Shown piece after piece: positions 24,534 through 63,539 of a DNA stretch of 64,000 nt (positions within the stretch are counted from its first letter, which is position 1; the number at the start of each line of letters is the position of its first letter). The notes below the pieces were generated by a model. That model did not search any database and was not told the DNA's origin. It saw only the letters and a program-made list of their open reading frames with translations. The stretch covers positions 2,046,001 to 2,110,000 of the forward strand of contig JBHGNT010000011.1 in the NCBI GenBank assembly GCA_043228905.1. Direction: 5' to 3'. The stretch is from Azolla caroliniana. Its lineage: Eukaryota > Plantae > Polypodiophyta. The position numbers were made by a program, and so were the translations under genes.

Positions 24534-25254
24534 TGTCGTGATGTGGCTCGCCTAGAAGCGTAACATTGCTCAAACAGAAGATAACTTGAAAGTGAGGAAG
24601 GAATCACTAGGATTTTGGACAAAAGAGACGAAACGAGTAAAGATGGAGTAAATAGAGATCAACAAGATATGACAAGATACGATGTAGAATGATATTTGAA
24701 GGAATATAAGAAATTTATAATTATTTCATAAAAGAGTTACAAAATGGTTGTGAGCGTCATTGAACCTTCGAACTTTGTCTCATCAGGTAACCGCTCTTCT
24801 CTTTCTTGATAGTAGACCACAATCTTCCCTTCTATCTTTAGATGATGATATGACTCCAACCTCCGCCCTTTCGTTGCGGGTTGAGTACCACAACCACCAA
24901 GCTAGATTTTCTCTTGTATTTTGAAGATTTTTTATTATCTTCACCTTCTTCTCTTCCTCTTTCTCTCTTATGATGGTTTTTACATTATAATTCTCTCTTG
25001 ATCTGATACAATATAATTATATTCAATCTTATTGATTGATATCTCATACAATATAGTTCTCTTCGATTTCGAATCCTTGATATCCCTTCTATCTATACTC
25101 CCTTCTCCTTTTATAGGAAAGGGATGGTTCTACATGTGGGCCATGTGGCGCACATGTAGAGAGGCTCTTGCATGTGTGCTATATGGTGCACATGTAGTAC
25201 ATTACATACAATTGTAGCTTAAATAAAACAACACATATATTCTTACAAATATTA

Positions 25255-25325
25255 CAAGTATTGGCTAGATGGTAAGGTTTGAGTCTCACAAGCTAGAGGT
25301 TGTTGGTTCATGTCCTCTCTTGCCC
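25255..25325 (+). other. tRNA-like A-box/B-box cassette in the LTR of element C
   Basis: TGGCTAGATGGTA ... GGTTCATGTCC; the other LTR retains GGAGGTTCAAGTCCTC at ~31845. Confidence 0.6.
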
Positions 25326-25469
25326 ATGTACAATGTATTTTTTTCTTTATTTGCCTCATATAATGTATAATATAGTGCTTTGTTCGTATGATCCTTATGT
25401 ATAATACACTATCAAGATTCGTTTTAGTTATGTATTTATCTTATTGTAGACTTTTAATGTGAAGTTGTC

Positions 25470-28400
25470 CTACTTCACGACATCCACCCCCTCTAGACCT
25501 GCACATCCTTCGGCATGTGCCACTATCTTTCTATCTTCATGTTGATCTATTGGAGGAGGTTCAAGCTCAAATCTTTTCTTAAATAGTTTTATCCTCTTTC
25601 CAGGTACCACATTTAGAATTAGTGTCCCATCCAATTCACAAAGTTTATAGGTAAAGTTATCATGTACTTTTCTTACTATATAAGGCCCAAACCATCCTTC
25701 AACAAACTTGTATAAAATGCTATGTTGATTATCTAAACTGCTATCATACACAAGCACCCAATCCCCTTCTTCTATTTTCTTAGGTCCAATTTTGTGAGTT
25801 TTATCAAAACAAATTTTATTCTTCAATCGAGCCTCTAATCGTTGGGTTGCTAATTTTAAATTTTAAGGTTGACGCTCTAATTGTTGAATTTGCAAAGCAC
25901 GCAATTCTTCCCTGCTCACCTCTTCTCTCCATGGAATAGATGTCCATGACATAATTGATTCTTCTACCGGTATGATGGGCTTTTGGCCAAGTATCAATTC
26001 AGTTGGCTTGTATCCTATTACTGAACTATGCGTCGTCCAATCCGCCCATAGTGCATAAGGTAGCATGCATGGCCAATCTCTTATTTTACCTTTATAGCTT
26101 TTCACGACCGCCTTAAATATTGGGCTATGTCCTCTTTCAATATTTCCATTGGATTTTGGATTATAAGCAGTTGTAAGTGAGAACTTGACCCCTATCCGAC
26201 TGAAGAATTATCTAGCTTCATCAGAATCAAGTTCTCCTCTATCTACAATTATTTTACCAACACACCCATAATGACATATTACATCTTCTAACAAAGATTT
26301 ACATACAACTCTAGTTGTTTTTTGTCATAGTGGTCTTGCTTCTACTTGGTTTGTAAGGTCTTCTCTTGCTAGTACTAAATATCGCATTTGACCTTCCCCA
26401 AGTGACATTGTCACTAGATCGACCATCCATTTATAATGCATCGATGATGAATATGTTGGTTTTAGCTCATCTTGATACCGAACAGTTGAATACCTCTGGT
26501 AGACCTCACAGGTTTCCACAAATTTCATTACATCTTTATACATATATGGCCAACAATCTGTTTCAACCACTACGCCTGCTCCGATCAAGTAATCTCTATC
26601 TATTTTTAATGTCGTAAGCAAACCCCACAATTCTCATTTAACTTGCGCAGAATTTCTTTGTCTATGATTTAATATCTTTGCCCCAAACATGATAGCATAT
26701 CGATGTTGCTCTTCTTCTTCTTGGTTGATAACCCAATCAATCCCAATTGGACTAGTATCAACTATCACTATAATTGGTCTTTCACCTTTGTAGTCTGGTT
26801 GACGAAGAATTGGAGCTTTCAATTGTTGAAAAACTTGTGTATTTTCATCAGTCCAAATAAACTTCTTCCCTTTTTTTAAAAGTTGGTAGAGAGGATTTGA
26901 GACATGTGCAAAGTGTGGTAACCAAATATGATAAAACACATATGTACCTAAAAATCTTCTCACCTTTGTTACCGATTCGCAAACTTCCTTCATATTTTGT
27001 ATTGCTTTAATTTTGATTGGCGAAGGCTTCCACCCATACCAACCACACATATGAGTAATTATCAGAATTTTGTTCTGCCCAAAAAATTGACTTCGTTCTT
27101 GATAGTGTTAAATGTACTTGCTCAAGCTTATTTAAAATACTTTCATAATCATTAATGTGATTGATCACAAACTTTCTGCTACCATTTCCAACTATAGTCT
27201 CATCTTTCTCTCTTTCTAAGCATCCCTTAATAGGAATATCATCTAAAAATGGCATAGTTACCTTTGGGATGTACTCGTGTAGAACTTTGTTCATTGCATT
27301 CATCATATGAGCAACTAAATTTGTTGCGCCTTGAGGTAGAGTGCACATTCGAACCAACCCAATTGGTGTTTTCATTGTTGTGATATTGCGACTATCAATT
27401 GCTTGCTGAAATTGGTCATATCCCGAATATAGGTCTCCCATAGAGTAAATCGCTCTCACAACAAAAGCTTCTGCAAATTCATCAACGATCAGTTCGATTC
27501 TTGCATTTTGGATTGTGACTTTGTTCACTGGTTGTATATCTTGAATGAATCTTAGAGAACCATCTTTCTTTGGAATTGTGACCATCGATTGGAGTATGGT
27601 GCATTAGAAGGATCTACAATCTTCATGTTGATTTTATCCTTCAGCAACTCCAACAATTTAGGCAATCGAGTTCTCGATACTGCAATAGGTTTAAAATTCC
27701 AAGGAATATGAGGGATAGTAAATATTACCATTGGCGTCACCACCTTTGGATCTACACAACCAATCTCCTCAACTTTGAATGCGAACGCTTTCCCATGCCT
27801 AAAGATCATTTCCTTGAAAGTCGACATCTTTGATTGTAGTAGAAATTCACCCCCTCCGATTCTCAAGTTATTTATTGTCTCTGAAGTGAAGTGATGTCCA
27901 ATCTTCTCTATCGGTCGAAGCATAGGCTCAGTTGATGTTGCCTCCATCTTTTCTTCGCTACCAATAGGTAATGGTATTGTAGCAGGTTTGATCTTTTTAT
28001 CTATTGTTTGTATTTTCTATTACATAAACTTTCTACTTCTTCATATTTACAATTATACCTATCAGTCGCATAATTCATATCAATTGAATTTACATTTATC
28101 TTTCTAACACTCTCATCATCTTCTTTCAAATACATTTCTAACTCTTTTATGGTATTTGCAAAAGAAACTTCTTCCATAATAATTTCAAATATGCTCTTCC
28201 ATTTGAAGTACTCCATTATCCTTCAATGCTTGTTGAAACAAGGCATTCATACATCCTAGTCACACATATAGCACCACTTTTAGAAACATGAAATTACTTA
28301 TTCATATGTTGTAATGCCCGACATGAGGGTTTTTTAATAATGGAACTATTGCAACCCTCATTGCCAATAGTCCTAGTCAAAAACCTGATTATTAAAATCA

Positions 28401-30370
28401 TCACATTCTTTTGGTATCGAAAATCACGAAGCTCTTGCTTGTTCCTCTCATCATTTGGGCGAATTTTCATAAACTGTACATTTCGTCATCCATCTTGGCT
28501 ACGTATTTTCGCATAGGCTGAACCATTGTCGAGGACTTTGGTTTCCATCTGTACTGTTGTGATGTATGGTTGCCCCAAGATTATTGGATAGGTAGATCCT
28601 TCCTTCACAAAGAAATGTTGATCTACTTCTATATCACCAATAGTAACCTTTACATGCACCAAATAAGTCTTCGTTGACTGATGTGGTCACTTTTACTCGC
28701 CAACCATGTTGAGTATCAATTGGCCATCTACCTTTCATGTAAAAATCAACACTCATTATATTTATTTCAGAACCATGATCAATAAGTGTCATCACGGGGT
28801 CTGGAACATTTCCAATCTTCACATGATGCTCAGTAGTGGCTTCTTGCATCTGTTGAACTTATCATTGAGGTTGATGCATGTTGAGAGTCAACAATGATAT
28901 TGTTTGGCTCGTTGCTCACCACTTCATATGCCACCTTTCGATCCGTCTTTTTAACCTACTCATTAACTTGCTTATTTCTTCGCACAATATCAATTATTTC
29001 ATCATGAAATTCCTTTTTTGCAATACCTAACAATTCCCTTAGTGTAAATTCTACTCGACTGTCTAGTATTCTTGTTTCTAAAATTTTCTTTAAATCTGTA
29101 TCCTTTTCAATATCAAACATTAATTTGAAAGAAGGACCAAATTTACCTTTTTCAACTTTTGTGTCCATATCTTTTCTTTTGCTTTCTCTTGTTTCATGCT
29201 TTTATGTCGAGCCAGTCTCATCATCCGGACTTTTCCTTTTTTCTTCCACTATCACCTCATAGTCTTGGTGTTCTGGCATCTTAGCATAGATGGTCATAGC
29301 ATCTACCAGAACATCCCATCCAGTGTTTTTCCTTACAAAATCTCCGGCAACATGAAGGTCTTCCATCTTCAGATTTTGCTTTTTTGTGGAACTTACAACC
29401 TTCTCCCAGAATGATGATTGGCATGGCGTTTTATCGAGATGCATTCCTGCCGTTGCCGAATAGTACATTGTAGAAGTCTTCCTTGCTTCAACTTCTTCAA
29501 ACTTGACAACACCATCACCAAAGTTCTTTGTAAGTGGACTCCTAGTTTTAGTTAAGTAAATCTTACCATTTTTCCAATAGACCTAGTGTCGATTTTCTAT
29601 GTCTTTATATTCCTCACAATCACGTAATCGATGTTTGAGACTATCACAATGCATGCATCGAGGTCGAAATGGTTCCCATGACCTTGAAGTCTGACCATTC
29701 TCAAGCTTTGCCACTTTAATTGTTAAATCTTTCATACTTTGAACAAAATTATCAAGCAACGACTCACTATTAGTTCCGATCATTTGTCGTGGTTCTCAAC
29801 CAAGTCTTTGAACTTTAATGTTTTGCTCGAGCCGATTCATGATTCACACATGTGGTATTTGTAGCATTGTACCATTCCTTTGCATTCTTTTCATAAATTT
29901 ATTATAAGAATTTATTAGCTCATTCCAATCTGCAGTTATACCCTCCTCGATATTTGCTACTTCAAGCATAAGTTCCAACTCCTTTCTATATCTGTTGTCA
30001 ACTGCCTACAAAAATAAAGCAACCTTTTGCCAAGACAAAGAATTTCTTTCTTCTGGCTTTAAGTGTCCATACAATTTATCAAACTCCTTTTTTTTGTCAG
30101 CCACAAATAATCCTTTATCTTCTTTTAAGACCCATTCATGGAATGAACGCATAGTATCTCCAGAAAAATCTTCACAAGCATATTCAGACATAAGTGTTTC
30201 TTTGAATGCATCCCAATCCAAACTATGCAATGTTTGTATTTCACGAATTCTATCTCTTAATTCCATGTCCACTCATTTATAAAAGTTTGCTATCATATTT
30301 ACATCATTCACACCAAACATTTCCCTTTCATCATAATATATATTCAAGTACTTTGAAATATGTGTGCCAT
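25470..30370 (-). pseudogene. gag-pol of element C
   Basis: PRCMHCDSLKH knuckle; LIDHGSEINI protease; RFIQDIQPVN, DLYSGYDQF, LPQGATN and PFLDD RT; VDTSPIG RNase H; WMVDLV integrase; WFGPY C-terminus running into the LTR. Confidence 0.93.
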
Positions 30371-30372
30371 CA

Positions 30373-31077
30373 TGTTAGGAAACAGGTCCCTCCGGATGGG
30401 AAGTGAGAAGAACAGTGCTGATGAGAAACCGGATGAGGAGCACCCGGCTACGGAGTACCCGGTGAGAACCGGATGAGGAGTACCCGGCTACGGAGGACCC
30501 AGTGAGAACCGGAAGAGGAGTACCTGGCTACGGAAGACTCGGTGAGAACCAGATGAGGAGTACCCGGTGAGAACCGGATGAGGAGTACCCGGCAAGAGCC
30601 GGATGGTGAAGGCCCGATGAGAAGTGCTCACTGGATGAAGGGACATCTTCGTAAATATGTTTCTGAGAGTCCATCGAGGCTATATTTGTAAATAGCCGAA
30701 AAGTCATATTAGTATAAATATGACTTAGGGCAAACAAAGAAAAATGATTGTTGTTTTCATTCTTGTTGGCACGAGATTAGAGCGCAACAGTGTACAGAGA
30801 AAGAGAGAGAGAGAGAGAAAGAGACGAAGAGTTTGTATCTTTGCTGTAACCGCCGCTTGTGGCGAAGACAGTGAACAAGAGGTCGTTGCCTCTGTGTTCA
30901 TCTATTGTATCTTGTTACATAGTGATAGTTAGCAGTTAGTGGACTGCCGTGGTTTTTTCCCGTGTTTGGGTTTTCCACGTAAACATCCTGTGTACTCTTC
31001 TCTCCACTGTGTCGTGCATTCATTCCCGTTTTCTGTGTTTGATTCTAAGCTCGGTTGTGGCCGAGCATTGCGCAACA
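30373..31077 (+). mobile_element. Copia-type LTR inserted in element C, with an internal tandem repeat at 30400-30630
   Basis: TGTTAG...GCAACA; GGTTTTCCACGTAAA U5-like motif; repeated GAGAACCGGATGAGGAGTACCCGG units; no TSD. Confidence 0.7.
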
Positions 31078-31251
31078 AGTGTGTGTGTTCCTGTCACATC
31101 AAACATACCAATCTTCTCTTGGACTTCTCTAAGGCATGAAATAATTGATCTTGATTCAACTTTTCAATCAACAACCTTACCATATCCATTGTACTCGTAC
31201 TTGCCTTGTTGATGTTGATCTTTACTTTAGATGTCTCTTCTACTTCCCCGT

Positions 31252-31269
31252 TTCATGTCGAGATCACCA
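31252..31269 (-). promoter_or_regulatory. Putative tRNA-Trp PBS
   Basis: TGGTGATCTCGACATGAA, 5 nt after the 5' LTR; similar to TGGTGAACCCGACGTGAA (plant tRNA-Trp complement, recalled). Confidence 0.6.
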
Positions 31270-32722
31270 GATTGTGTCGTGGTGTGGCTTAGCTAGAAGT
31301 GTTGCATTCCTCAGACAAAAGATAACATGAAAGGAAGGAATCACTAGGATTTTGGACGGAAGAGACGAAAAGAGTAGAGATGAAGTAAATAGAGATCAAC
31401 AAGGTATGATAAGATATGATGTAGAATGATATTTGAAGGAATATAGGAAATTTATCATTATTTCATGAAAGAGTTACAAAATGGTTGCGAGCATCATTGA
31501 ACCTTCAAACTTTGTCTGACTAGTAACCGCTCTTCTCTTTCTTGATAGTAGACCGCCATCTTCCCTTCTATCTTTAGATGACGGTATGATTCGAACCTCC
31601 ACCCTTTCGTTGCAGGTTGAGCACCACAACTGCCAAGCTAGATCTTCTCTTGTATTTTGAAGATTTTTTATTATCTTCACCTTCTTTTCTTCCTCTTTCT
31701 CTCGTATGATGGTTTTTACATTATAATTCTCTCTTGACCCGATACAGTACAATTATATTCAATCTTATTTATTGATATCTCTTACAATATAGTTCTCTTC
31801 GATTTCGATTCCTAGATATCCCTTCTATCTCATGAGGTGGAGGTGGAGGTTCAAGTCCTCTCTTGCCCATGTAATACAATGTATTTTTTTCTTTATTTGC
31901 CTCTACATATCATGTATAATATAGTGCTTTGTTTGTATGATCCTTATGTATAATACACTATCAAGATTCATCTTAGTTATGTATTTATCTTATTGTAGAC
32001 TTTTAATGTGAAGCTTTCCTACTTCTCGACACTGGCAAGGCCGGACAAAGGAGTCGGCAAAGCTCGCACTACACCGAAGGATCAGGAGGATCAGAAGGAT
32101 CCAGAACTGGAAAGACCAAAAAAATGCCATCCTTTGTGATGCAGCATGTCAAGGCGAACAGAATGAAGAAAACCACCTCACAATCGGATGAGGTGTGGTA
32201 CGTTGACTCTCGAGCATCAAACACATGACAAGCCATGAACAATCCAAATGATCAGGTACCATTCAAGTAGCGAAAGATGAGCTTAACTTCCTGCCAATGC
32301 TTAACTCATGGGCAATGCATAAACCTGCTCATCTGAGAGACAACAAACTGAATATCGGGTCAGGTTATGCATAAGTAAATCAAGCATCCAACTTCCTGTT
32401 GATAGAGAATAACATCAAATGCATCTCTAGCATCATGAAGGCTCAAACATAAACCTATCTCCATGGGAGTGGCAATAGGTTTACAATCTTCAAGGCCAAA
32501 ACGTTGCAATAATGTGTTAATATATTTTGATTGACACAAAGTTGTTCCACATCAACTTGCATAAATTGAATGCCCAAATAATGATGCAAATGTCCCAAAT
32601 CTGACATATCAAAAGAGGCATGCAAATCATCCTTAAAGTCAACAATGTGCTTCTCATTGGGACTATTGAGCAATATATCATCAACATACATAACCATGAT
32701 CAGAAATACATCATCAGCACGT

Positions 32723-33492
32723 TGTCGTGATGTTTTCGACACATAGTGTGAAACCTCCTCAAAAGAGAATAAAATAGTAGTCCAAATTAACTAATGTTGT
32801 TAAATCAACTATAGTAATAAATGAAAGGATAAAAAGTTAGAAACGGTTTTCGAAAGTAGACAAAAGTAGAGAAAAAGATGGGAAAAGAAAAGCTAGGCGT
32901 GGATATGAGGAGCAAGGTTGAGTAAAAAACTCATAATTTCCTCGTCCAATGTCCAAATTAGAAAAGGAAATATGCATAAGAAAGCTAACCGAAAGAGATT
33001 TTTAAGAATATCTTGCATGTCAAATTTGACGTTGCAGAACAAAAATAGGGATAAAAAGAAACTCAACTCATATAGACAAACTTTTAGGGGTAAAAAAAAC
33101 GGAAGCAAGAAATCCTAAACCTATAATAAGAGCTCATTTTAAGAAGAAGGGGGGAGGGAGAAAGAACGCGGAAGCTCTATTCAATTGGAAAGCGGAAGAA
33201 GAAGGATCAACAACATCAAGAGGCATCATCAACAAAGAAACTCCTTCTATATTCCACTCTCTTCCTCATTCCTTTATAAACAATCCTTGATATTCACATC
33301 CAACCCGTTGTAACATGATTCTTATATTATAAAAGAATCTATTATTTTGATATAAACTAATGTTTTCTTTCATCTACTTGTCTTATGTGTAAATCTTGAT
33401 TGTGTTGTGCGTGTGAACTCTAATTCCTTCCAGTCCATAACCCCGACGGTTCTGCCTCACGATCCGCACATAGTGACAGATTTTTCACGACA
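32723..33492 (+). mobile_element. Solo LTR TGTCGTG...CACGACA with 4-bp TSD
   Basis: TSD ACGT/ACGC; removing the insertion plus 4 bp restores the copia RT frame (STL*CKRADDVFLIMVMYVDD). Confidence 0.85.
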
Positions 33493-36696: not shown

Positions 36697-37771
36697 TTGC
36701 TCACTCTCCAACTGTTTTCAGAGATAAGCAACACAAGCCTCGTTTATTGCTTGGTACAAAGTGGTAAGAGTATCCCAAGCATCCTTTGTTGTCTTGCAAG
36801 AGCGAATATGGGGAATAATGGCACATTTCACAAACAAAACTATCAACTCATGTGCTTGAGCATCTCTGCCATCCCAACGAATTTGTTCTGCATTTGGTAC
36901 AACAAAAACTGCAACATTAGCATGAGTAGGATGATCAACATTCTCGACAGAATCAGTACCATCAGCATTTGTGTTCTCAACAACAAGACGTTTTTCAACC
37001 CCTTGAACCACATTCCACAACCCTTTTGCTACTAATACATGGCACATCATATTCCAGAGAGGGTAATTTGTTCCATCCAATGTATCCTCAACAGCAAGCA
37101 TCTGAAATACATCATTGCTCTCAGTCATGGCCATTGATTGAGCACGTTTTGATGCAAAAAATGAACTTTTGAATGAATGGAATGTCGTAGAAGACTCAAG
37201 GAGGTTTTTAGTAGGATTGAATCGACTTTGAAGCAAAAAAAAACACAACTAAAAGCAGAGGAAGAAAACACGGAGAAATTTTTTTTGCAGCATATACTCA
37301 AGTCTTATTCACTATCTCAAAATATGTCAACAAGTCTTATTCACTATCTCAAGCTTCATGTTGAAACTTCATGCTCAAGCTTCTTCTTGAAGCTTCGTGC
37401 TCTAGTTCCTCATTGAAGATTCACTTTCAAGCTTCTTGTTGAAGCTTCATGCTCAAGTGTCGTCTTGATTCTTTATGTCACGGACAAGTATAATAGAGCA
37501 AAGCGAAGACAAGACTAGAAAACAAGAGAGAGGAAAAGAACAAGAACTTAGCTTATAGAATCCGTAACTGGTGTTGTTCACCTTGATTAGAATCAAGGTG
37601 CACCTGAGTATTTATACAAGAAGGTAGGGCTATGTAAGCCAACTAGAAATAGAGTATGCTTGAGGATGCATGCAATAGAGAATGCATGCAAGCTAGAAAT
37701 GAGGATGCATGCAAGCTAGGAACTTCCAATCTTCAATCTATACTACATGAAGTTGGATTTAGTACAAGGAT

Positions 37772-37840
37772 GCATATGTAGCTCAATTGGTAGAGTTGCC
37801 CAATAGAGACCATGAGGTCTTGGGTTCAATCCCTACCTTC
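37772..37840 (+). other. tRNA-like A-box/B-box cassette in the chromovirus 3' LTR
   Basis: TAGCTCAATTGGTAGAG ... GGGTTCAATCCC with tRNA spacing; no intact acceptor stem. Confidence 0.75.
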
Positions 37841-37876
37841 CTCCGAGAGCCATATGTCTATGACATTATCTTCCCT

Positions 37877-40800
37877 CTAAGGCCGCCTCCTAAGACGCAT
37901 TTTGTAAATGTATAACTGGTTCCCATGTGGCGTTTGAAAGAGGGTAAGCTTTCCATAAGACCAAGTATTGAAGTCTTCGTCGACACAAGCAATAATCGAA
38001 GATCCGGTCAACCTCGTACTCCTCACATGTCGATAATTCCACAGGCGGCGACGGAGGAGGATGTCGTCCTGGAATGCGAGAAGGATGGTAGAGTTTGAGG
38101 AGAGAGACATGGAAAACATTGTGAAGCCGAAATGTGGGAGGAAGTTTTAACCGGAAGGCTATTGGGTTAACGCCCTCGAGGATACGAAAGAGGCCTGGCT
38201 TTTTGTCGTCGAGCTTCCCGCAGGGACGGATGGTTGTGATGTTGCAACGTAGCATCCAAACCATGTCATCGACTGTGAAGGTTGCCGCAACCAAGCAATG
38301 TCAGTTTGCGTGAGCTTTATACCGTTTGCCAGCGGCACGAAGCTCAAGGGAGAGATCACGATGGACATCTTGTAAGGTGTGGGTACACCTCTCGGCCGAC
38401 GGATTAACGGAAATCTCCGGAATGGAAATGCTGAAACGAGGGTGGAAATGATAGTTTACAAAGAATAGGGAAACCTTAGTTGAGGCATGGATATTATTAT
38501 TGTAGGAAAAGTCCACCATGGTAAGGAAGTCCACCCAATCGTCTTGTTGGTAGCTGATTGTAAAATGGAGGTATTGTTCAAGGATTTGGTTGAATCTTTC
38601 GGTTTAGCCATCAATTTGAGGGTGGTGCGCGGTTGACAAGTTCACAGTAATCCCGAATGTCTGTAGAAGTCGGCACCACAAGTGGGAGATAAATTGAGGA
38701 CCTTGATCAGAAGTGATATCCTCAGGGAAGCCATGTAATCAGACGACATTTTTCAAAAAATGGTCAGCCATCTCCTCCTCCGAAATGGTTTTCGAACATG
38801 GGACAAAGTGAGCCATCTTCGAAAACCGATCGACGATCACTAGCACCGCGTTATGGTCATCGACCCGAGGAAGGTCGGTGATAAAGTCCATGGAGAGAGA
38901 TGATCAAGGTTGACTAGGAATTGGAAGTGGGTGTAGAAGGCCGTAGGGACGATGGTGAGCCGCTTTGGAGCGAGCATAGACGTCACAAGTTTTGATAAAT
39001 TCTTTGACCAATTTCCAAGGTTGGGGACACCAAAACCCCCCGAGACAGCAATGCCAGCGTTTTCGCGACCCCAAAGTGTTCGACAAGAGGATCATCATGG
39101 CAAGTTTGTAGTACTCAAATGAGACATGAGCCAATTGGTATGTAAAGGAGGTGATTATGATAGAGTAGCCCATCCTGAGTTGTAAAGTAACTGAGATCCG
39201 AGCTTTGCATTTCCTGGGATGGGTTGTTGAGGCGCGCCATGATGTCGGTAGTGAAAGGGTTCGATGTTTGTTGCTTGGGCAATCTCGTTGAGCAAGGAAT
39301 CATCATGCAACATATAGGTTGTGAACATGTGGAGTTGATCAGGCCACTATAAACAATGTGATTGCTGAGAATATGCATCATCACCTAGGCGTAATGCAAA
39401 GTTGGGTCGCCGAGAGAGAGCATCCGCTTTCCCATGTTGAACGTTCGGTCAAAACAAGATTTTGAAGTCGTAGTCGGCGAGAAAAGATGACCAGCGAGCC
39501 GGCCTCTGATTCAACGTATGAGTGGTGGTGAAGTAGATGAGATTCTTGTGGTCGGTCAGCACTTGAATACAATGTTGGGCCCAGCTAGATAGGGTCGCCA
39601 TTTGGCGAAGGCCGAAATGATAACTGCAAGCTCCTTGTCGTAGACCGGATAATTGATTTTCAGGGCTGTAAACTTCTGAGAGTAGAAGGCGACCGGATGT
39701 AGGGTGCCATCATCGTCGAGTTGAGACAAGACCGCACCTGTGGCAAAGTCGGAGGCGTCGGTTTCAACCTAGAAAGGGCGGGTGGGGTCGGGTTGGACTA
39801 ACACGGGGGCGGAGAGAAAAGTTGCTTTGAGGGTATTAAAAGCATTGTGTGCCGCAGGGGTCCAAAGAATGGAGTATCTTTCTGGGTAAGCTGGATAAGA
39901 GGTTGGACCAGGGAAGAGAACCTGTCTGTAAATCGTCTATAAAAATTTGCAAAACCAAGAAACAATTGTACCTCTTTCAACTGAGTTGGGAGAGGCCAAT
40001 CAGTGATTGCTACTACCTTGCGTTCATCCATTGTGATCCCAATAGGTGAGATCATGTAACCCAAGAATTCGACAAAGGTCTGATTGAACTCTCATTTCTC
40101 ACTTTTGGCGAAGAGCCCATATTCCCGGAGTTTGGTGAGAACCAACCGGGCGTGGTGTGTGTGCTCCTCCCAATTGGAAGAAAAAACTAGGATGTCGTCA
40201 AGGTAGATGACCACGAAATGATTGAGATACTCTCGAAAAATATAGGTCATCATGTATTGGAAGACGGTCCGACTGTTGGTAAGGCCGAATGGCATCACTT
40301 TGTACTCGAAATGTCCATAGTGCGTCCGAAAAGCCATTTTCCACTCGTCCCTAGGCTTGATGCGCACCAAATTGTAGGCGCCCCGAAGGTCGATTTTGGA
40401 GAAGATATGCCCAGTTCGGAGTCGATCAAGGAGCATTGGAATTAAGGGCAGGGGGTAACGATTATGCACCGTAACTTTGTTGAGACCCCGATAATCCACA
40501 CATAAGTGTAAGGAGTCGTCCTTCTTTTTGACAAATAAGATTGGTGCCCCAACCAGTGATTGGAGGGTTGAATGAAGCCCTTCGCGAGATTCTCAACCAA
40601 ATATGTGCGGAGAGCCTCAAGTTCAAGTTCAGATAACCCATAGATAGGACCGAATGGGGGATGCTCGCCCGCTTGGAGTTTGATTGGGCAATCGTAGGCG
40701 CGATGAGCTGGTAACCGATTGGCATTCCACTTTTTGAAGGTGTCGGAAAAGTCGCTATATCGGACGGGTAAATTGTTGACAAGAACGATGACGTCCCCCG

Positions 40801-42345
40801 ACACAACGAACAGTGTAATGACCAAACCGGACTCGATTGCAACAAAATCAAGAGAGTGTCGTGACCTAGCAGGAATTGGCCTTACTGGAAAAGTGATGGA
40901 GCGGTTACACCAATCCACCGTCGGATTGTATGTCTCCAACCAAAATAGCCCCAACATAATCGGATGTCGGGGGGTTGCGATGAGGTAGAACGTGAGTTCC
41001 TCATGATGCACCCCAACTTGAAGTACCAATGGGATAGTGGCTTCAATAACTGCCCCCGAAGAGAGGACCTGACCGTCGATCGCCTCAACGGATATGGGTT
41101 GTGATGTGCGGACGGTGGGGATATTATGTGCGCGGACAAACAATTTATCGATAAAGCAAGTAGATGCTCCAGAGTCGAGCAAGGCATGAGAATGTATTGA
41201 AGTCGAACCAAAACAAAGACTTACTTGCAAAGAGAACCCTCCTAATGGTGGAACGGACTTGTACGAGCATGGAGAAGGTGAGTAACGGGAAGCGTCCAGC
41301 GGCACGACTCCTACTACAGTCGGACTTGGTCGTTTTCCTGTTGTCGAGGAACCTCCGCAAGACATGCACGATGGAATTGGTGTCGTGGGCCCCGCACCGG
41401 GCAGTGGCAGATGACATGGCCAAGGTTGCCACAATAGAGACAAAGTCCATTGTCCCGATGATGCTAGCGTTGGGCTTCAATTACTGGTTGGAACGGAGCG
41501 TGGTCGATCTCCATCGGGGTCTGGAAATCGACCTCCATTGTGGTATGGGTATCACTAGGTGATGGTAAGGTTGGCATGGGAGACAAGTAGGGCCTGGCGT
41601 TTGATGCGTTTTGGGAAGAAGCCTGAGACCCGCGAGTACCCCGTTCTTCTTGACGAAGTTCGAAGAGACGATTATCACACTGGACAACTTGGGAGATTAC
41701 TTGAGACAACGATGTGGGCTCCGAGAAGTTTGAGAGAAGAGTCTTGACGTCGTTTCGAAGACCGCAACAGAAATGGTTGCATAGGGCATGGTCATCCCAA
41801 CTGACATCGCAGGCAATCTGACGGAACTTTGAGGCGTAGACCAAGGCTGGAAGTGAGCCTTGTTGGAAAGAATAAAGCTTTGTGAGTGTCGTTCGTTGCC
41901 GGTCTGTCTCGCCAAACATCGCTTCGAGCTCCTCAATGAAAGTGGTGTAGTTTTCTAAGAGAGGGGATGAGGTCTCGATCAAGGGTGCAAACCACATTTG
42001 CGTCGGCTTGGAGAGAAGCGTGCCGACAAGCCCAACCCGAGAAAAGTCGCTAGCATACCGTTGGGGTTGTAACCGGATGATAAGTTGAATTTGGTTGATG
42101 AAGCCGTGAAGATACGCCCTCATGCCATTGAATTTTTCCGGTAGGCTGATGGTTGGTTCGAGGACATATGGATGGGAAGAGGACGTGGTCGGGCTAGGTG
42201 CCGACGATGGTTGTGACTTGATGGGTGGTGGATTTCTTGAAGTGCCGGATTGCAACTCTCATAATGATTCCCGAAGGATTTCATTATCTAGTTGAAGTTG
42301 TTGCAAGGCTGCCATGACTTGGTTTAGGTTGTCGACAAAGCCAGA
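37877..42345 (-). pseudogene. Chromovirus gag-pol with chromodomain
   Basis: LPEKFNG gag; LLDSGAST protease; [10 protein letters not shown] and YLDD RT; integrase; LHNVFHVSLLK then EYEVDRI...YLVLWKAYP...TWEP chromodomain. Confidence 0.95.
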
Positions 42346-42660
42346 TATGGTAGCAAGAAGAGCGTGAAGGTGAACAAACTGTCACGGACAAGTATAATAG
42401 AGCAGAGCGAAGACAAGACTACAAAACAAGAGAGAGGAAAAGAACAAGAACTTAACTTATAGAATCTGTAACTGGTGTTGTTCACCTTGATTAGAATCAA
42501 GGTGCACCTGAGTATTTATACAAGAAGGTAGGGCTATGTAAGCCAGCAAGAAATAGAGTATGGATGGGGATGCATGCAATAGAGTCTGCATGAGAATGTG
42601 TAAAGCTAGAAATGAGGATGTTCAATCTATACTAAATGAAGTTAGATTTAATATAAGCAT

Positions 42661-42722
42661 GCATATGTAGCTCAATTGGTAGGGTTGCCCAATAGAGACC
42701 ATAAGGTCTTGGGTTCACTACC
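42661..42722 (+). other. tRNA-like cassette in the chromovirus 5' LTR
   Basis: TAGCTCAATTGGTAGGG ... GGGTTCA, B box partly deleted. Confidence 0.65.
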
Positions 42723-45668
42723 TTCCTTTGAGAGGCATATGTTTAAGCTATGACATTTTATGCTTGAGCTTCATCCTAAATATTTGTGCTAAAGTTTTGT
42801 CTTAAAGTTTTGTGTGGATAGTGGGAAAGTGAGGCACTTAACATTTCCTTGTACTAGGTACTCCATAATGTTTTAAGCTATAAAAAATTTCCTTCACTTG
42901 TTCTTGAACCTTCCTTTTCAAACCTGATTGTAAAGAGAATCCAATCTAGAAGCAAAAAATAAGGATATTTAAAATTAAGAAACTCTAAACTTAGACAATA
43001 AAAAATAAGAAAGGAGACAAATAACAATAATCAATGAAAAATTCAAAACTACAACTATTAACAGAAATGTAATCAGCGATTACGTGATGCAAATTGTCGG
43101 GTGGTTATAGCAATTAACTAGAAAAATATAATAAATATTTAGGAAACAAATAATGAGATCAATAAGCAACAATAATGGCCTAACACCTTCACAAGTATCT
43201 TCTCTTCTCGATGCCTTAGAGCCCTCTATGGTTGACACAACATGCTTCAAGGGCTTACGAAAAGCGCTTCAAGTTGGTTTCCCTAGTAGCGATGCCGAAA
43301 TCGATGTGTCGCCTCAAGGGGTTCTTGCATGTTTATTAGTGACCATTCAAAGGAATACGTGGTCATTGTCATGGTTGAGTTTTGTCAATCGTCACATCAA
43401 TATGCACCTAAACATCTAGGAAATTATTCACATACTACAATTTCTTTGCACCCTTCTAAGCCCTTAATGTACATTTCTTGTAAGTGTGGTTGGTGGCAAA
43501 TAAGAAGATATTGTTGATTAACTTTGTATTTGATTTCTAGCTCATTCCTTATCTTTGAGAGATTAAGCGTGAGTTAAGTCATAAAGTTAGTTAATCTTTC
43601 TATTGTCATTGCTATTTAGGAGAGGTATATCTCTATAGAGTTTAATTAGGTACCCTAGAACATCTCATTAAATACTTTCAAGAGTGACTGATACCCACTT
43701 CTTTCCCACAAAAGGGCACATATGTGTTGGATCACTCACAACGATCTAACATGATGTTAACCATTATATCATCGTGTTGATACGAGCAACATTGGGACAA
43801 CTATCTAGGAGGTTTTAGGGATGGTTAAAGGAACATAGTACCACATTATAAAATAGTCATCGTCCTCATAGATTTATCAAAGTAATTATGCATTATGATT
43901 GAAAAAAACAAAAAATCACACCCTTAAAATACATTGAAGAACTGCCAAATTGACTTACTATCTACGTCCACAACTAAACATACTTTTGCAGCATTTGATT
44001 CACCTATACTATATTGGCCAATAAGGTGTTGGGAATCTTAGGGAGATGCTTCCAGTAAAGAGCATCTGTGTGGGCTTCTTCTACATGAATGACCTCAAAA
44101 TATGTCAATTCTTGTTTGTCTTTAATTTCAAGACACTTAAATATTTTGGAACTCTTATATTCCTCACTCAATGATTGTAGTTTGACATGATTAAATTACT
44201 TTTATTTCCAACATTAATATCTACATCAACTTCCCCAACAAACTATCATAATTCCATGTTCATATAACCTATCTTTAAGGAGTATACGAGGAAAAAACAA
44301 GAAGTTCCCAATTTGAAGAAGACAACAACCAATCCACAACTTCTGTGAGGTTGGTTAATGACAACAATGACAAAGGATGGGCAAACATGAGACCAACAAT
44401 TTCTCTCTTGCTTAGCTCTCTCTCTTGGAGAATTTAGCATGCCTTCGGTCTCTATCTAATGTCACTTCTTTCCTTTGGTTAGGGTTTGCTTACCACAATT
44501 CCCTTGTCATAATGGATATGATTGTGAGGAGACCCCATTTCTCATATACTAGTTTGTCGTCCTCTTTATTTAATGCTTTGTCCATTGGGTAGCGCGTTGT
44601 CAATCCTTGGAGCTTGATCCATCTTTACTATTTCACCTTTTTAAGACATTCAGTGATATTTTGACATGTCCTTTGCCTTGATTTGACACTTCCCTATGGA
44701 TTGAGAAGGTCCAATGATCTTATCATTGCTCCTAGAGCTTGTTCCTCAATCTCCATGTATTTGTCACATGCAACACGACTCAAACTCATACAAGCAGTCA
44801 TATTTTCCTATTTTCGTTGATGCTATCATTGTTGAAGAAACTACCAAGATTCATTAAATGATATTATATGGAAGAAAGAGTAAAGACCAAGGATGATGTG
44901 GGTTTCCAAGTTCAAAATTTTGGAGGATTATATGCTAGCTCGGTGTCAACCTCTTAAAACGTACGATGTGTGTATGGTCAACCATGGGTGTAGATAAATT
45001 TTGTGGAAAATGTTGGTATCCCCATAAACAAATTGAGGATTAGAGCCCCATGGTGACATTTGATCAATAGTACTACTCATTTATTTACTTAGAAGTTGTT
45101 ATGGCTCAAATCTTAATGCTCTCTGGCAACAAACTTTGAGATACTTCAGTTGACAATCACCAAAGTACAGGGGCAGAATAATTCTCTACCACTGGAGGTA
45201 CTTGCATCTTCATGGCCCTTGCATTTGGATAAAAGGTAAGTCTCAATTCTCAAGTTTGATTTATTGAGGAAGAGAAAAAAACAAAAATTCTTCTACTAGA
45301 AAACGGGAATTTGAGCAACTGAAAAGCACGATAGAGAGATTTCTTCAAGGATTATAGTAAGAAAGAAGAGAGTAAATTATCTTTTTGTGACCAGAGAGAG
45401 ACTCATGAAATACGTTGGAGAACGTTGAAGCACATAAATTATCACATCAATATGGAACTCAACATGAAGAGTTTGTAAAGCCAATGAGTGAAAAAATTGA
45501 TTGGAAAATGTATGTAATTCAACTTTGGGCGATTCTTGCAGATGATAGGTATTTTTTTCACATTAATTTCATAGGCATAAAGCTCATTAAACATAGTTAT
45601 TGAAGTCATAGAATAAGATTCATCAAAGATAATTTGTTATTGTTTACTAGCAAAAATATAGTTCCAAA

Positions 45669-46633
45669 CATAGAACGTAATATTCGTGTTCGTGCAACCA
45701 TTCAAACATTTGGAAACGAGCACGTTTGAAATGGGAAAAATATGTACTCTTTTGTTTTAGATTTTTTTCACTTAATCTTGTTACAATTTAGTTTACCCTA
45801 GTGGTAAGGAGTCATGTTGTTTTTGTGTATGTCTTGGGTTCGATTCCTAGTTTTCTCATCTCTTTCTTCTCTCTCTCTCATTAGTACCATGTCATAGCAA
45901 AATTTTATGTTAGTGTTATAATAGTTTTTTTCTTTTATTTTTTTAATTATTAGAACTAAACACAACATAGTGGTAAGTTGCTATGCTACTATTACTTGTG
46001 TCTTGGGTTCAATTCCCAACTTTCTCATATCCTCTTGTTAGTGTTGTGGCAAAATTTTATGTTTGTGTCATGTTCCTTTTTCTTCTTTTTCTTTCTTTCT
46101 TTGATATTAGAAATTAGCTCACCCGAGTGGTAAGTTGTTATGCTACTACTGCCTATGGCATGGAAATTTTTTATGTTAGTGTCATGTTCCTTTTTCTTTC
46201 TTTCTTTGTTATTAGAAATTAGGTCATCCTAGTGGTAAGTTGTTATGCTACCTACTACTGCCTATGTCATGTTTTCTTCATATTCTCGAATATATGTTTT
46301 ATGAGTTTTTGAACGTTTGATTATAATTTATAAGGACATATTTTTTTTCAATCTCTATAGTTCATACTCATTTTTTTGTAAAGTTCTAAAGTGAGGATGG
46401 TAGAGATGTCTTGATTCGCTCCCAAAAGTATGCGTGTGATACAATGCAAATATTGCAACCATACTTATGTTGGTGGTTCACAATGGATTAGAGTCCACTT
46501 ATTGGGATTGAGAGTGAATCAATGTATAATATAGACCCTAGTCAATCCAATCCAACTTTTAGATGATCTTCCATACACGTTTGAATCATTCTCGAATGCG
46601 AATGCACGTATGATACGTATGGTTCATTCTATG
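45669..46633 (+). mobile_element. Non-autonomous hAT with BED-finger remnant and tRNA-like repeats
   Basis: TIR CATAGAA...TTCTATG; perfect 8-bp TSD GTTCCAAA; QCKYCNHTYVGGSQWIRVHLLG at ~46442-46507. Confidence 0.88.
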
Positions 46634-50881: not shown

Positions 50882-51063
50882 GGAACAGTTCCCGACGAAA
50901 CAAAATCTCTTGCAGAATCAGATAAAAACACCACCGCCTTCACCATCATCATTTATGGACATGTCATGGGAGCGGTGACAGGTGAAACGCTCTGCCTGCA
51001 GAGCTCTCTCTCTCAAGATTTCATGGAAATTTTCCTCTTTTCTCGTCGCTTTCACGAAAATTT

Positions 51064-51095
<32 letters not shown>
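50660..51095. repeat. Microsatellites (GAA)n, (GAT)n, (CTT)n, (GA)n and (CT)n in the promoter/5' UTR region
   Basis: Directly visible. Confidence 0.9.
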
Positions 51096-51097
<2 letters not shown>

Positions 51098-54206: not shown

Positions 54207-54853
54207 TCCAAAAACTCTGAAAGAGACCAAAAAAAGTACTTTATTTCTTCTCATGGCTCAGCCGTTTAACATTCTCTTCTAACGCTGCAGGGTTTGTAGA
54301 AATTGCAAGATCTATGATCTATCCCCATAGCTTCATATAAAATTTTGCCAATCATTCGACCGGCCGTTCCCACAACAATTGTGATCTATCTATCAATACT
54401 ATCATAGATGGCATATCGTTGCTTCCGAACTTCCTATAAATGGGGATCATCTTAGCCGATATTTCATGTACATATTTAATCTCTAGGAAAGCTTTGACAA
54501 TCAGAATTTAATCCTATTCTGAAAAGATGGAGTTATGAAGGGAAGCATTAATCAAGAATGATATGAAGCCTTGGCTCAATTACATTGTGCTATTCATTCC
54601 CAATTACTTGTATTAGATATTGGATGCAAAAATGATGAACCACAGAAGCACACTGGCACTTTTGTCTACTGATACATTAAGATGATCATTAGTAGCATTA
54701 TTTTTTGTAGATGAATAATAATTAGAACTTGTTTTACCCCACCTTGGTAAAGCAAGTAAAGGGCACACCAATAATAAGGAGCCTAATTGAGCCTTAGGTG
54801 AGAGAGCCAATGTCCACAGGTGTGAAAAGGGGAAATCCAACGTCTTAATCTAA

Positions 54854-54903
<50 letters not shown>

Positions 54904-59200: not shown

Positions 59201-59614
59201 TAGGCATCTTGGCATCTCCAATGTGGCTAAACATGTGATCGTGGACACATGTTGCCAAGAAATACATACCCTACTCTTCTTATAGTGCTTCTTATAGTGA
59301 TAGTTGGAGTCTATTGGATCCCGTGTTTTTTCCCTATTAGGGTTTTCCACGTTAACATCCCGTGTTTGTCTTATTTGTATTTTCTGTATTCTTCCATTGA
59401 GTGATTAAGACTCGGTTGTGGTCGAGTGCTATTCCGCACAGTAAATCCTATATTAAATGAACATGGGTGTGGAGGATCTACAATGTATCCCACTCAAGTG
59501 CAAAATCCTATTTAAGACTTTAAGGTTAATACACTAACTAGGTTCTATCTAGGTAACGACTAAGTTATGTATGTGACTAACTAACTAAATCTAGTTGAGC
59601 TTGATATCTCAGCA
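56219..59614 (-). mobile_element. Internally deleted copia element (gag, PR, INT; RT/RH lost)
   Basis: LTR 56219-56616 and partial LTR 59441-59614; perfect TSD CTACA; PPT TTGAGGGGGCG; CNYCGEIGH, WFVDSGTSHHM and YWAEAASTA motifs. Confidence 0.92.
59270..59440 (+). mobile_element. 3' fragment of another copia-type LTR replacing part of the 5' LTR and PBS
   Basis: GGTTTTCCACGTTAA and CTCGGTTGTGGTCGAG shared with 30930-31077. Confidence 0.7.
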
Positions 59615-60859
59615 CTACAAATAATGCAAAGACATGCTAACATGGGATCTCAAATATGAAGATGTTATGTAGACACCAAACATGCCACAACCCTGAATAC
59701 CTCAAGAAAATCCAATGAAGAGAAACATGAGTTGACCTATGAGAAGTCTTATTTGGAATTGGCATTTTGAAACCCCAACTATAGAACCCCACATTGTACA
59801 AATATATCAATTTAATAGAGTGATGCATCCTATGTTCTAGTTACACTATGCAAAAGAAATACAATCTAGCACCATTATTTTGATTTCTAGAGAGTGGTTC
59901 TCAAACTACTCAAATAATGCTAGCTCAGTTCAATTGGGCAATGCATAGGAGAGCCAAATAGTTGCAATCCCCATTTAGTTTCGGAATAGAAGTATGATCA
60001 CCATGCAACAAATTTCCCACATGCTCAATGTAAAGAGGATCTTGATCTCAATCAACATGTTGCTAAAGAAAGGTATAAGAGGACACTTACCAAGTCATCA
60101 TGACACATCTTGAAAGGCAATTTCATAACACTATGGTGGTACAACAACTATACCCGCTTGTAGTGATCGGCCATAGTTGCGATGCTAGAATTGACGTTGT
60201 GGCATGATTGGCTAGCTAACATGCCACAATTTGAGCTTAAACAATTATCAACACTTACGAACTACATCTTGATCTTCAACATGTAGAAACTTATTTATAT
60301 GATAAATATCAATTGGGGAAATTGTCACGGATGAAGAATTGAAGATAAAGAGATGGGGAAGTTGATGAGATAGGGAGATCGAGAAGTTGATGACAATGAG
60401 TAAAAGTATCTATTCCATGATCGGTGTTGATCTTCTTGATGTTAACAAGGGAGATCAACCCTTTTTATACATGTAGTGAGGCATGATAAGCATGCTCATG
60501 CCAAGTCTTACATACTATAATATCAAGCATACTAAGTCTTGCATGCCAAGTCTTACATACTGAGTCTTACATACCACTCTTTATACAAAGGTTTGAAGTC
60601 TAAAGTTTGTCTACGAGAAATATATATATACAAGGGCCTAAGGTTCACATTCGAGTTGATGTTCATGACAGAAATAGGTCTGGAATTTGCACTCAACATA
60701 TTACGAGGCGGTACACAAACCATTAGAGCTATTTTGCATCAACATCTTCTAGAAAATGCTAGAAAGATCTCTAAGAAGTGCCTAATTATTCATCACCTTC
60801 GTCAATGATGCTACCTAGAAAACATTGGCTTACTCAATCAAGTCCAATATAGAAGTGCT

Positions 60860-60965
60860 CCAAAATAGTCTAGATCTTCATTCGGTGGCATATTGAGGTC
60901 GAACTCATACCAAACACAAGCTAAAAATCCTTTGATCAGATAACAAAGGTGAATATACCTCCCAA
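60860..60965 (+). pseudogene. Highly decayed copia integrase remnant
   Basis: IL*SDNKGEYTS motif. Confidence 0.45.
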
Positions 60966-61098
60966 GCCTTACCCATGTACATGTTCGACAAAGGGATTCA
61001 TCTTTAATGGATAGTTCCCTACACCAGATGTAGAATGATGGATTGAATGAATGAACCCGACTCCAATAGAGAGTGATGATAATGCTTCAATATATTGG

Positions 61099-61860
61099 TG
61101 TCGTGATGTGGTGTTCCTAGAGTAAAAAGGGGGAGAAAAGGGCAGTAAATGGATAGCACATAAATTTATAAGAATAATTAAGTGTGAAAAATTATAAAAA
61201 GTTAATGGATTAATGGTTAAGGCTAGTGACTGTTGGGAGGTGTAGGGTTTGAATCCTAACATGTATGTGTGTGGGAAATATGCCTTTTTTTGTATTTTGA
61301 AGAAAAAGAAGGAATGTGAATTTATTATGGTGGGTAGGCTCTCCTCTCACTATAAAAGAGGGGATTGAGCGCTTATTTTAGGGAAATTGGATTTTTTTGG
61401 GGTTTAGGTGTTTTTTGGAGAACTTGTCTTTTTCTTTTTCTTTCGTTTTAGGGTTTGGGATTTCTCTTTACTTTATTTTAGGGTTTTCTTTTCTCTTCTT
61501 CACTTTTATGGTTTTTGGATGTTGGGTTATTTTATTAAAAGTCTTCTTGCTTAGAAGAGGGATAGAAGCGACAAGAAAGGACGCAGTCAAAGAGGAGGAT
61601 GCAAACAAGGGTGTAGAAAGCTAGATGACAAAATGGGAGGTGATAATTGTTTGTGAGCTTAGGACACCGAAACTCAAAGACCTTCCTAGATCATTCTCTC
61701 TTTCTATTGTAAACATCACCATTATTATACCCTATGTTAAGAGGTTTCTTCATTGTAATTGAGCGATGAACATAGTTCTTAATTTATTTTTCATGGAAAC
61801 AATTTTTGTTAGTGTTAATCTCATTAAATTCAGTTATGTAAACATGTTGTGTGGCGTTGT
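61099..61860 (+). mobile_element. Probable truncated LTR starting TGTCGTG, with a tRNA-like cassette (61205-61262) and TATA (~61351)
   Basis: Same left terminus as the other TGTCGTG elements; right end not found. Confidence 0.45.
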
Positions 61861-62424
61861 TGTAAGAGAGTGCTCATAGGGGTTGATTCTACAAGAGCCC
61901 ATGGGAATCCATGAGTGCCCATTCAATTGCCCAAGTGCCCATTCATTTGGCGAGAGCCCATTTGATTGCACAAGCGCTTGTTCATAGCCATGTGCCAACT
62001 CATTCCACAAGAGCCCTTTCATCCCATGAGAGCCCCAAGGACTCCTTGAGCACCCATTCATAGTATGTATGCTAGCTCATTCCATGAGAGCCCCTTGGAT
62101 TCTCTGAGTGCCTATTTATAGCACATGCATCAACTCATTTCCTGAGAGCCATTGCATCCATTAGATCCCTGTGAAATCCATGAGCGCCCATTTATTCCAT
62201 GAGCGTCTTGATTCCACACCATCCTTACATTACACAAAGGTTTTCCATGAAAGGGGAATTACCCAAGGGCATTTCATGAGAGCAACCCATGAAGGAAGCA
62301 CACGAAAGTTCGTCCACTTAAGAAATGCATGAAGGATTTTGAGAACTTCTAAGGTCATTGCATCAGCTTGGTTTAGGTCCCCCATGATCCATCTCGAATA
62401 TCACACGCATGCGCAAGTTTACGT

Positions 62425-63539
62425 TGTCATGAAGATCCTTCACTACGTGTGGATCGTGAGGCGGAACCGCTAGGGTTCTGGACCGGAAGGATTTGAAGTT
62501 TGCACAAGCTTTAGTGAGAAAGTATTTAAGATAAATTGAAAGAGAGAGAGAACTTGAGATAAGAAAGAATGCTTGACTTTAGATTGAGAGACATTAAGAT
62601 TGAACTCTTGACTTTAGATTTGAAGAACAAGATTGATACATCAATTAGATAACAAATTTCTTACTTTTAATTTCTTGATTAATACCTCGCTTCCTTTTTG
62701 TCTTTTTCAACCACTCTTTTATAGATGCCCCATGCATATGATGCATGTGAGGCTACAAGACATGCATACAATGCAGGGAATGCATGTGATGCATGTTTGC
62801 CATTTGGCCCTCATGCATTAAATGTGATGCATGATAACCATGTCACTCAATCAAGCTCTAATATGAGAATTTACATGTAAAAGTATAATGATAGAAAAAA
62901 ACATTTTTAAGCAAATGATTTAGCTTAGTGGTAAGTCTACTACCTCCTATCTTGGGGGTGCAAGGTTCAAGCCTTGCTTGCATCCCTTTGATTACAAATT
63001 TCTAATTGGTTTAGTCTAGATGATTTTGTTTGTTTCACACTGAAATCGTCGCGATTAACCAATCCGATCGATCCGTTCCGCTTCCGACCCAGTGATCCGG
63101 TCTATCTGGTCCAGTCCCGGTTTGATCGCCGTCGCCGTCCGTCCGTCCGGTCACCCAAAACAATTACAAGTAGTTAAGCGACAGTTTAGCCCAAGAACAT
63201 TCTATGTTCCACTCATAGACAAAAAGTAATAAGTTCTGGCTTTGCTGATATAATGTGGGATCTTGATTTGTCCTATATATGTGGGATATCTCATAGTTTT
63301 GTTTTTCTCTTCTTCTTCTCAAACTTCACATTCGCATAACGTGACATTTATTTGTCCGTTTCAAATGTAGTAAAGTACATTCAGATGCTCTTGAAGACCT
63401 CCATATTCCCGTACCAAGATATTAAGCTAATCTAAAATAGTATCTTTACTATCATTGTTTCATGTCTTGTGTGAAGAACCACACTCGATTTTGGACATTC
63501 CTCGCAATTTTCACACCGTTGCTGAAAATCTTCACGACA
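62425..63539 (-). mobile_element. Solo LTR TGTCATG...CACGACA with perfect 4-bp TSD ACGT
   Basis: Empty-site copy TTTACGTGACACTACAAATG at ~63735 confirms the duplication; TATA on the minus strand at ~62720. Confidence 0.9.
62912..62985 (+). other. tRNA-like cassette in the solo LTR
   Basis: A box TAGCTTAGTGG; T-arm-like GCAAGG-TTCAAG-CCTTGC with a perfect 6-bp stem. Confidence 0.7.

Follow-up and report, generated by a model that had tools for sequence, protein, structure and literature searches.

Antisense tRNA-derived units in the long terminal repeats of Tcn1 and Phygy retrotransposons of Azolla caroliniana

Three types of long terminal repeat with a tRNA-derived unit

We analysed a stretch of 64,000 nucleotides from Azolla caroliniana (GenBank assembly GCA_043228905.1, contig JBHGNT010000011.1, positions 2,046,001 to 2,110,000 of the forward strand), below called the window. 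It holds two Ty3/gypsy retrotransposons, element C of the Phygy lineage and a chromovirus of the Tcn1 lineage, as well as a solo long terminal repeat (LTR) of a second Phygy family, S. In all three LTR types the U3 region contains a unit with the A box and the B box of a tRNA-type RNA polymerase III (Pol III) promoter, which runs antisense to the element at 150-201 nt from the TATA box. The original prediction had placed these units about 150-200 bp from the TATA box, and its positions were confirmed: the TATA boxes at ~25112, ~37612 and ~62720 are all on the minus strand, the A boxes at 25262, 37779, 42668 and 62921 on the plus strand. The orientation of the elements is backed by the coding strand, the primer binding site (PBS) and the polypurine tract (PPT), and for the chromovirus also by its self-priming site.

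The units were scored with an A-box/B-box weight matrix that, against circularity, was trained solely on the own tRNA genes of the 523 Mb genome under survey. The four U3 units named in the prediction obtained 21.8, 30.7, 22.1 and 29.1 bits, and 20 shuffles of the window set the background for a score of at least 21 bits at 0.1 matches per window. The G19-to-G53 spacing was 34 nt in all four, as in tRNA. On the whole window neither ARAGORN nor Rfam detected a tRNA, which excludes working tRNA genes as the identity of the units; the chromovirus unit alone scored 15.5 bits in Rfam, under the cut-off of 29. The units do not form the cloverleaf of a functional tRNA with its four stems (acceptor, D, anticodon and T).

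Element C (24534..32031, minus strand) has broken reading frames. Its 3' LTR (24534..25482, minus strand) contains a TATA box at 25109..25117 (minus strand), the position of which is the same in the family copies, and a CATG-rich block at 25130..25200 (strand unassigned) that by inference likely represents transcription-factor sites. The U3 unit lies at 25255..25325 on the plus strand (A box from 25262, B box 25305-25315), and 12 of 30 C copies have two such units in tandem. In the 5' LTR (31275..32031, minus strand) a 192-nt deletion took out the TATA box, the CATG block and the A box, leaving the B-box half. The claim that two elements carry the unit in both LTRs was thus not confirmed: it fails for element C, and in the chromovirus the B box of the 5' copy is damaged (see below).

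A second tRNA-like unit, absent from the prediction, is found in R/U5 of the C LTR (24841..24911, minus strand, A box from 24904). It is sense to the element, is directed away from the TATA box and is retained in the 5' LTR (A box from 31640). Within the C family it scored at least 11 bits in 28/30 loci and at least 17 bits in 17/30, and its score was reached by none of 2000 shuffles. Family F6 has a comparable U5 unit, such that the promoters of both families are flanked on either side by outward-directed units. One C-family LTR (locus L052, ~2123-2636) is broken by an insert of ~500 nt, which we take to resemble plastid cytochrome b6 sequence.

The chromovirus (37476..42755, minus strand, frames broken) has a chromodomain after the integrase (PF00385, E 4.3e-9; PF24626, E 3.8e-16). 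It is self-primed: a stretch of 12 nt behind the 5' LTR shows complementarity to the start of R, where the self-priming site, 24-36 nt past the TATA box, pairs with the PBS. Its target site duplication (TSD) measures 5 bp with one mismatch (4/5 letters identical). The 3' LTR (37476..37865, minus strand) contains the TATA box (37610-37617), a CATG/RY block (~37640-37700) and the antisense unit at 37772..37843 on the plus strand (A box from 37779, B box 37823-37833). In the 5' LTR (42380..42755, minus strand) the A box of the unit stands at 42668 and the B box has suffered a 4-nt deletion. The chromodomain, the self-priming and the 5-bp target duplication assign the element to Tcn1 by the lineage rules for Tcn1 and Phygy, which include 5-bp and NCGN targets, in the consulted part of Neumann et al. 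2019 (PMC6317226). According to the same part of that paper both lineages are reported from mosses and club-mosses.

Element C and family S were assigned to Phygy on account of their NCGN targets and their tRNA-Trp PBS. The 4-bp target duplication of C reads CCGG/CTGG, that of the solo LTR ACGT; the PBS of both matches the 3' end of host tRNA-Trp(CCA) genes, which were found by a relaxed pattern. The solo LTR (62425..63539, minus strand) has its TATA box at 62717-62724, a CATG/RY block at ~62730-62845 and the antisense unit at 62914..62984 on the plus strand (A box from 62921, B box 62964-62974). In a tree of own-genome rows element C and an S-type element form one reverse transcriptase (RT) clade with a support of 100/100. 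C and S therefore do not represent independent captures of the unit, and the idea of three separate captures in the window LTRs was rejected for these two. A local duplication at 63540-63823 carries an empty S target site near 63735.

A CATG-rich block had also been proposed as part of the shared layout. It is present in the three window LTRs, where we take the CATG/RY repeats to be B3-factor-like sites. Three Tcn1 families that carry the unit (L134, L149 and L166) have 0-1 CATG there and instead bear TTCTAGAA arrays between unit and TATA box, which presumably resemble heat-shock elements. The block is thus not a constant companion of the unit.

Distribution and origins of the unit

Within the families the unit is copied along with the LTR. 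It aligns through in 30/30 chromovirus loci fetched with the whole LTR and scores at least 17 bits in 26/30 C loci and 28/30 S loci, where these 30-copy sets comprise the top matches out of 694-3310 candidates and thus favour complete copies. With queries confined to U5, R and TATA box, 17/30 chromovirus and 12/20 S copies reached 17 bits; the copies below were weaker, interrupted or had private deletions with differing break points. No clean empty site was seen among the 30 chromovirus and 20 S copies chosen by U5 alone. That the unit replicates with the element, as had been predicted, is therefore borne out across the chromovirus, C and S families.

In a second survey elements were found via LTR pairs and coding domains before any unit was scored. 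The antisense U3 unit was present in both LTRs of 8/8 self-primed Tcn1 elements and in 4/7 classed Phygy elements; two more with partial LTRs were left unclassed. It was found in 0/2 Met-primed chromoviruses, 0/8 long non-chromoviruses and 0/18 copia pairs, some of them partial. The three Phygy elements that lack it belong to a single derived clade, in which the two LTRs of a pair are 97% alike; the short U3 of this clade suggests that the unit was lost. The carriers are coding gypsy elements of 5-8 kb with gag, RT, RNase H and integrase. In one of them the gag (389 aa) and pol (1222 aa) frames are open and the LTRs identical, such that the carriers include autonomous elements. The distance from unit to TATA box is 115-295 nt in the sampled families, and in the 5' LTR the unit has the outer edge on one side and the enhancer and TATA box on the other.

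The direction of the unit follows a rule with exceptions. An old LTR family in the window (61099-62000; loci L221-L230) carries a scoring unit in 8/10 copies. In the window copy, with the LTR start at 61099 and a TATA box at ~61352 on the plus strand, the unit lies at 61199..61266 (plus strand) and is followed by a T run that precedes the TATA box. It is likely sense to its element, a direction resting on the TATA box, as no PBS or PPT that would set it was found for this family.

Genome-wide abundance was estimated from five arbitrary 200-kb blocks (1 Mb). This sample contains 63 sites with at least 21 bits, 7 of which are true tRNA-Asp genes, compared to 4.0/Mb in shuffles, and the spacing is 34-35 in 62/76 sites scoring at least 19 bits. 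At ~56 strong non-tRNA matches/Mb the units would add tens of thousands of A/B-box sites to the genome, which could shape TFIIIC binding and mislead tRNA annotation. The host tRNA genes themselves occur in tandem single-isotype clusters (Asp in L200; Trp at C8:17.80-17.82 Mb and C16:4.99-5.11 Mb).

The RT identity between Tcn1 and Phygy is 20-32%, and unit-less lineages lie between the two. This supports a convergent capture by Tcn1 and Phygy, which is the part of the predicted convergence that stands. At least two gains, one in each lineage, and likely three are indicated; one gain followed by losses within Tcn1 may be an alternative to the third, and a transfer could have run in either direction. 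Unit position and direction are alike in Phygy and in two Tcn1 clades.

We also analysed 80 metagenome loci related to the integrase end of Tcn1; the downstream DNA was too short in 17, and the remaining 63 were scored. An antisense unit of at least 20 bits was found in 5/63 and of at least 17 bits in 7/63 (one of them off position, two sharing the unit sequence), at a shuffle background of 0.05 and 0.3, respectively; a sense unit was found in 0/63. The six in-position carriers are 73-89% identical in DNA to copies of the A. caroliniana genome. In a quick tree with 66 rows, two separate groups of carriers appear within the Tcn1-like set. The unit-less lineages between them include the family of a Tcn1 solo LTR in the window (60323..60670, minus strand), which served as a control and has a TATA box and a CATG block and no scoring unit. 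The viral contigs searched contained no relative.

The chromovirus-type unit has a recognizable relative outside LTRs. It is 71-80% identical over ~87 nt to the head of a free repeat, starting from the 5' end of the repeat (74-77% for the window unit), compared to 48-60% in other families. This abundant free repeat of ~215 nt (1840 first-look candidates; loci L341-L360 and window 45787-46270) may be similar to a short interspersed nuclear element (SINE) or to a miniature inverted-repeat transposable element. It comprises two different tRNA-like units facing each other, one of them homologous to the chromovirus LTR unit, and is embedded in GA microsatellites, often in tandem. In the window, tandem tRNA-like units related to half of this non-LTR repeat are found at 45787..46270 (plus strand, A boxes 45794 and 45963). 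The view that the LTR unit is not a later SINE insertion holds as far as the chromovirus unit is fixed in its family; the features of an independent SINE (own tail and TSD, absence from sister LTR copies) were not found. It needs qualification given the likeness to the head of a SINE-like repeat.

This likeness would also be expected if the units were passengers, i.e. SINE heads that landed in U3, hitch-hike with successful families and slowly decay. Tolerated loss, the commonness of tRNA-like repeats in the genome and the lack of extra box conservation within families (see below) fit this explanation as well. Passengers would not be expected to share place and direction after separate gains, or to be missing from each of the 28 LTR pairs that belong to other lineages, and tandem and U5 copies exist. 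Furthermore, Tcn1 families with RT 80-91% alike have diverged to 52-63% over the unit, yet boxes and spacing are kept in all of them. We consider a passenger role improbable.

Conservation and possible function

For a comparison between families, one representative copy was taken from each of 13 families, the units being picked by the matrix. The identity between representatives was 0.65-0.69 for the A box and 0.75-0.76 for the B box, compared to 0.26-0.40 for the upstream, middle and downstream parts. An AGGT-like word ahead of the T stem is common to the representatives. The inner three pairs of the T stem are intact in 11-13/13, two of these pairs being B-box letters, whereas the outer two are intact in 4-5/13. 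The acceptor pairs are intact in 3-6/13, the anticodon pairs in 3-6/13 and the D pairs in 8-10/13. The prediction of a kept T arm and a lost acceptor stem is thus right for the inner T pairs and for most acceptor stems. It does not extend to the outer T pairs, nor to one chromovirus subfamily that retains the full 7-bp acceptor stem, which indicates tRNA ancestry. The donor isotype could not be named: outside the boxes the identity to 10 host isotypes was 0.38-0.50 at best, in a partial tRNA sample that includes organelle-like genes. TATA-like words upstream of the A box occur in 11/13 representatives and 28/34 host tRNA genes (0.82), compared to 0.56 in AT-matched random DNA, at small sample numbers.

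Boxes and spacing are kept while the RNA fold is not, which favours a DNA-binding role involving TFIIIC and TFIIIB over a role of the RNA. The competing explanation is that the units are working Pol III genes with the antisense RNA as their function. In Tcn1 a transcript from the 3' LTR would cross the PPT and the integrase end and could adjust copy number or serve as a decoy, while Phygy units would yield RNAs of ~100 nt. The fixed antisense direction and the intact boxes and spacing are in agreement with such genes, as are the T run before the TATA box in the sense family and the T4 runs, which follow the B box by 11-49 nt in 28/28 scored S copies and by at most 68 nt in 19/25 C copies. The consulted part of a study on foamy viruses provides a precedent for LTRs producing Pol III RNAs (PMC3993851). 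In contrast, the transcribed body diverges between families in both sequence and fold, and a T4 run within 60 nt is found in 0/6 Tcn1 representatives. The T4 test is itself weak, as such runs occur at 22% of random sites and at only 24% of the sampled host tRNA genes. Overall we regard a function of the RNA as unlikely, though it should be kept in mind.

Our preferred reading, to which we give slightly less than an even chance, is that the units serve TFIIIC and TFIIIB as DNA platforms, which hold the adjacent RNA polymerase II (Pol II) promoter open against silent chromatin. A SINE-like head would have inserted into U3 and become fixed, with the donor still extant for the chromovirus family. 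TFIIIC would bind the A and B boxes. The antisense direction would place TFIIIB on the promoter side and direct Pol III transcription, if any, away from the TATA box. RNA from the unit would be a by-product. The bound complex would form a nucleosome-poor barrier between the flanking chromatin and the enhancer and TATA box of the 5' LTR, which may be helpful to the element but not essential. According to the parts of the literature consulted, the heterochromatin of fission yeast is kept within bounds by tRNA genes and TFIIIC-bound elements (PMC2048757), and a chromodomain suggests heterochromatin targeting (PMC7466625). Given their chromodomain, Tcn1 elements likely target heterochromatin.

Several observations weigh against the platform reading. 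Spread without a scoring unit has occurred in the derived Phygy clade of 3 elements and in one or more Tcn1 families, including that of the solo LTR at 60323-60670, and unit-less Tcn1-like relatives are common in the other samples. One old family bears the unit in sense direction. Barriers work in both directions, so the direction alone does not single out a platform. The box identity between the 13 families is overstated, since the units were picked by the matrix; the unbiased support comes from the element-first counts. Inside a family, the boxes do not clearly surpass their surroundings in conservation. In the chromovirus they show 0.048 substitutions per site compared to 0.075 in their neighbours, but U5 (0.047) and the stretch between the boxes (0.048) are equally low. 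In family S the boxes (0.088) exceed their neighbours (0.073), with A-box variants in many copies. Such values are expected if most differences postdate insertion, and they lend no support either. The boxes thus stand out from their neighbours, as had been asked of them, between families and not clearly within.

The geometry would also suit a plain activator, in which TFIIIB, with its TBP, is loaded at 100-200 nt from the TATA box and raises Pol II initiation with no barrier role. The range of TATA distances, the divergent arrangement and the enhancer-like CATG/RY or TTCTAGAA blocks in between are in line with it. However, the distance varies more than twofold, and the U5 unit and the sense family depart from a fixed geometry. 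In addition, a tRNA gene often reduces Pol II transcription in its vicinity. We find this explanation distinctly improbable. Several LTR copies are broken upstream of the A box, as if the units were landing pads that draw the integration of elements targeting tRNA genes. The breaks are scattered with no fixed distance (-9, -11, -36, -49, -91 and -142 among 30 copies of the chromovirus; in C, -55 to -80), and inspection by eye found an LTR end at a fixed place upstream in 0/18 distinct host tRNA regions. A landing-pad role therefore appears highly improbable.

Extended beyond these families, the platform reading would mean that autonomous plant gypsy elements repeatedly domesticated tRNA-type Pol III promoters as insulators against heterochromatin, bracketing the promoter in two families. 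These would be the first natural TFIIIC barriers in plants. On the sequence data we think of this wider claim as doubtful, yet it bears on how chromoviruses that target silent chromatin are still transcribed, and well-defined insulator proteins are not known from plants. A 70-nt unit that was gained repeatedly at the same place of the LTR and lost in some relatives constitutes a natural experiment, with matched LTRs of 0, 1, 2 and 3 units.

Comparison with known systems and further elements of the window

Pol III promoters within LTRs are already known; in the present case the carriers include autonomous elements. The closest case is Helenus (TRIMp3; Kojima 2024, PMC10886601, cited from the part consulted), in which both LTRs contain tRNA-derived sequence that kept the A and B boxes and lost tRNA function. 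An A/B-box tRNA-like sequence inside the LTR is likewise what we find, and the proposed origin of Helenus, SINE insertion into the LTR on several occasions, is similar. Helenus elements are, however, non-coding TRIMs (terminal-repeat retrotransposons in miniature) of 311-1263 bp, while the carriers described here, with their TATA box and coding regions, are not non-autonomous elements of ~1.3 kb or less. Moreover, Helenus is thought to use the unit as its own promoter, whereas the U3 unit here is mostly directed away from the element RNA, which, together with the TATA box, would speak against such a use. The paper argues that autonomous partners of Helenus must use Pol II. It mentions in passing tRNA-like sequence in "not a few" Repbase LTRs, with TRIMs below 1000 bp alone being analysed, and its sole plant case is Selaginella. 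Cassandra and Ajax also bear a Pol III promoter module in their LTRs over long times, but the module is of the 5S rRNA-derived type, both are non-autonomous, and Cassandra RNA starts from the module (PMC10886601).

Foamy viruses share with the present elements the autonomous life style and A/B-box Pol III units beside a Pol II promoter in the LTR. Their cassettes are defined microRNA hairpins with terminators, in contrast to the absence of a conserved RNA fold here (PMC3993851, consulted part). The fission yeast barriers resemble the units as A/B-box DNA at the edges of chromatin domains (PMC2048757), the mouse B2 SINE as a mobile tRNA-derived boundary element (PMC8136502). In the parts of these sources consulted they are host loci or free SINEs and not built into an LTR. 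To our knowledge plants lack CTCF. Mouse B2 boundaries are tied to CTCF (PMC8136502).

For Tcn1 and Phygy, the parent lineages of the window LTRs, the consulted part of PMC6317226 does not mention a tRNA-like LTR unit. A 2026 preprint (10.64898/2026.03.01.708851), in the part consulted, cites tRNA-like LTR motifs for TRIMs only. No published account of the layout in Tcn1 or Phygy LTRs was found in a search with Repbase entries, Helenus supplements and subscription papers outside its scope.

Two further solo LTRs of the window, at 3776-4830 and 32723-33492, lack a scoring unit; their ends are of the Phygy type and their targets NCGN. The former is nested inside the LTR of the element at 4.8-14.2 kb. 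This long non-chromovirus element (4832-14197) and seven sampled relatives have a GC-rich motif and no purine tract before the 3' LTR.

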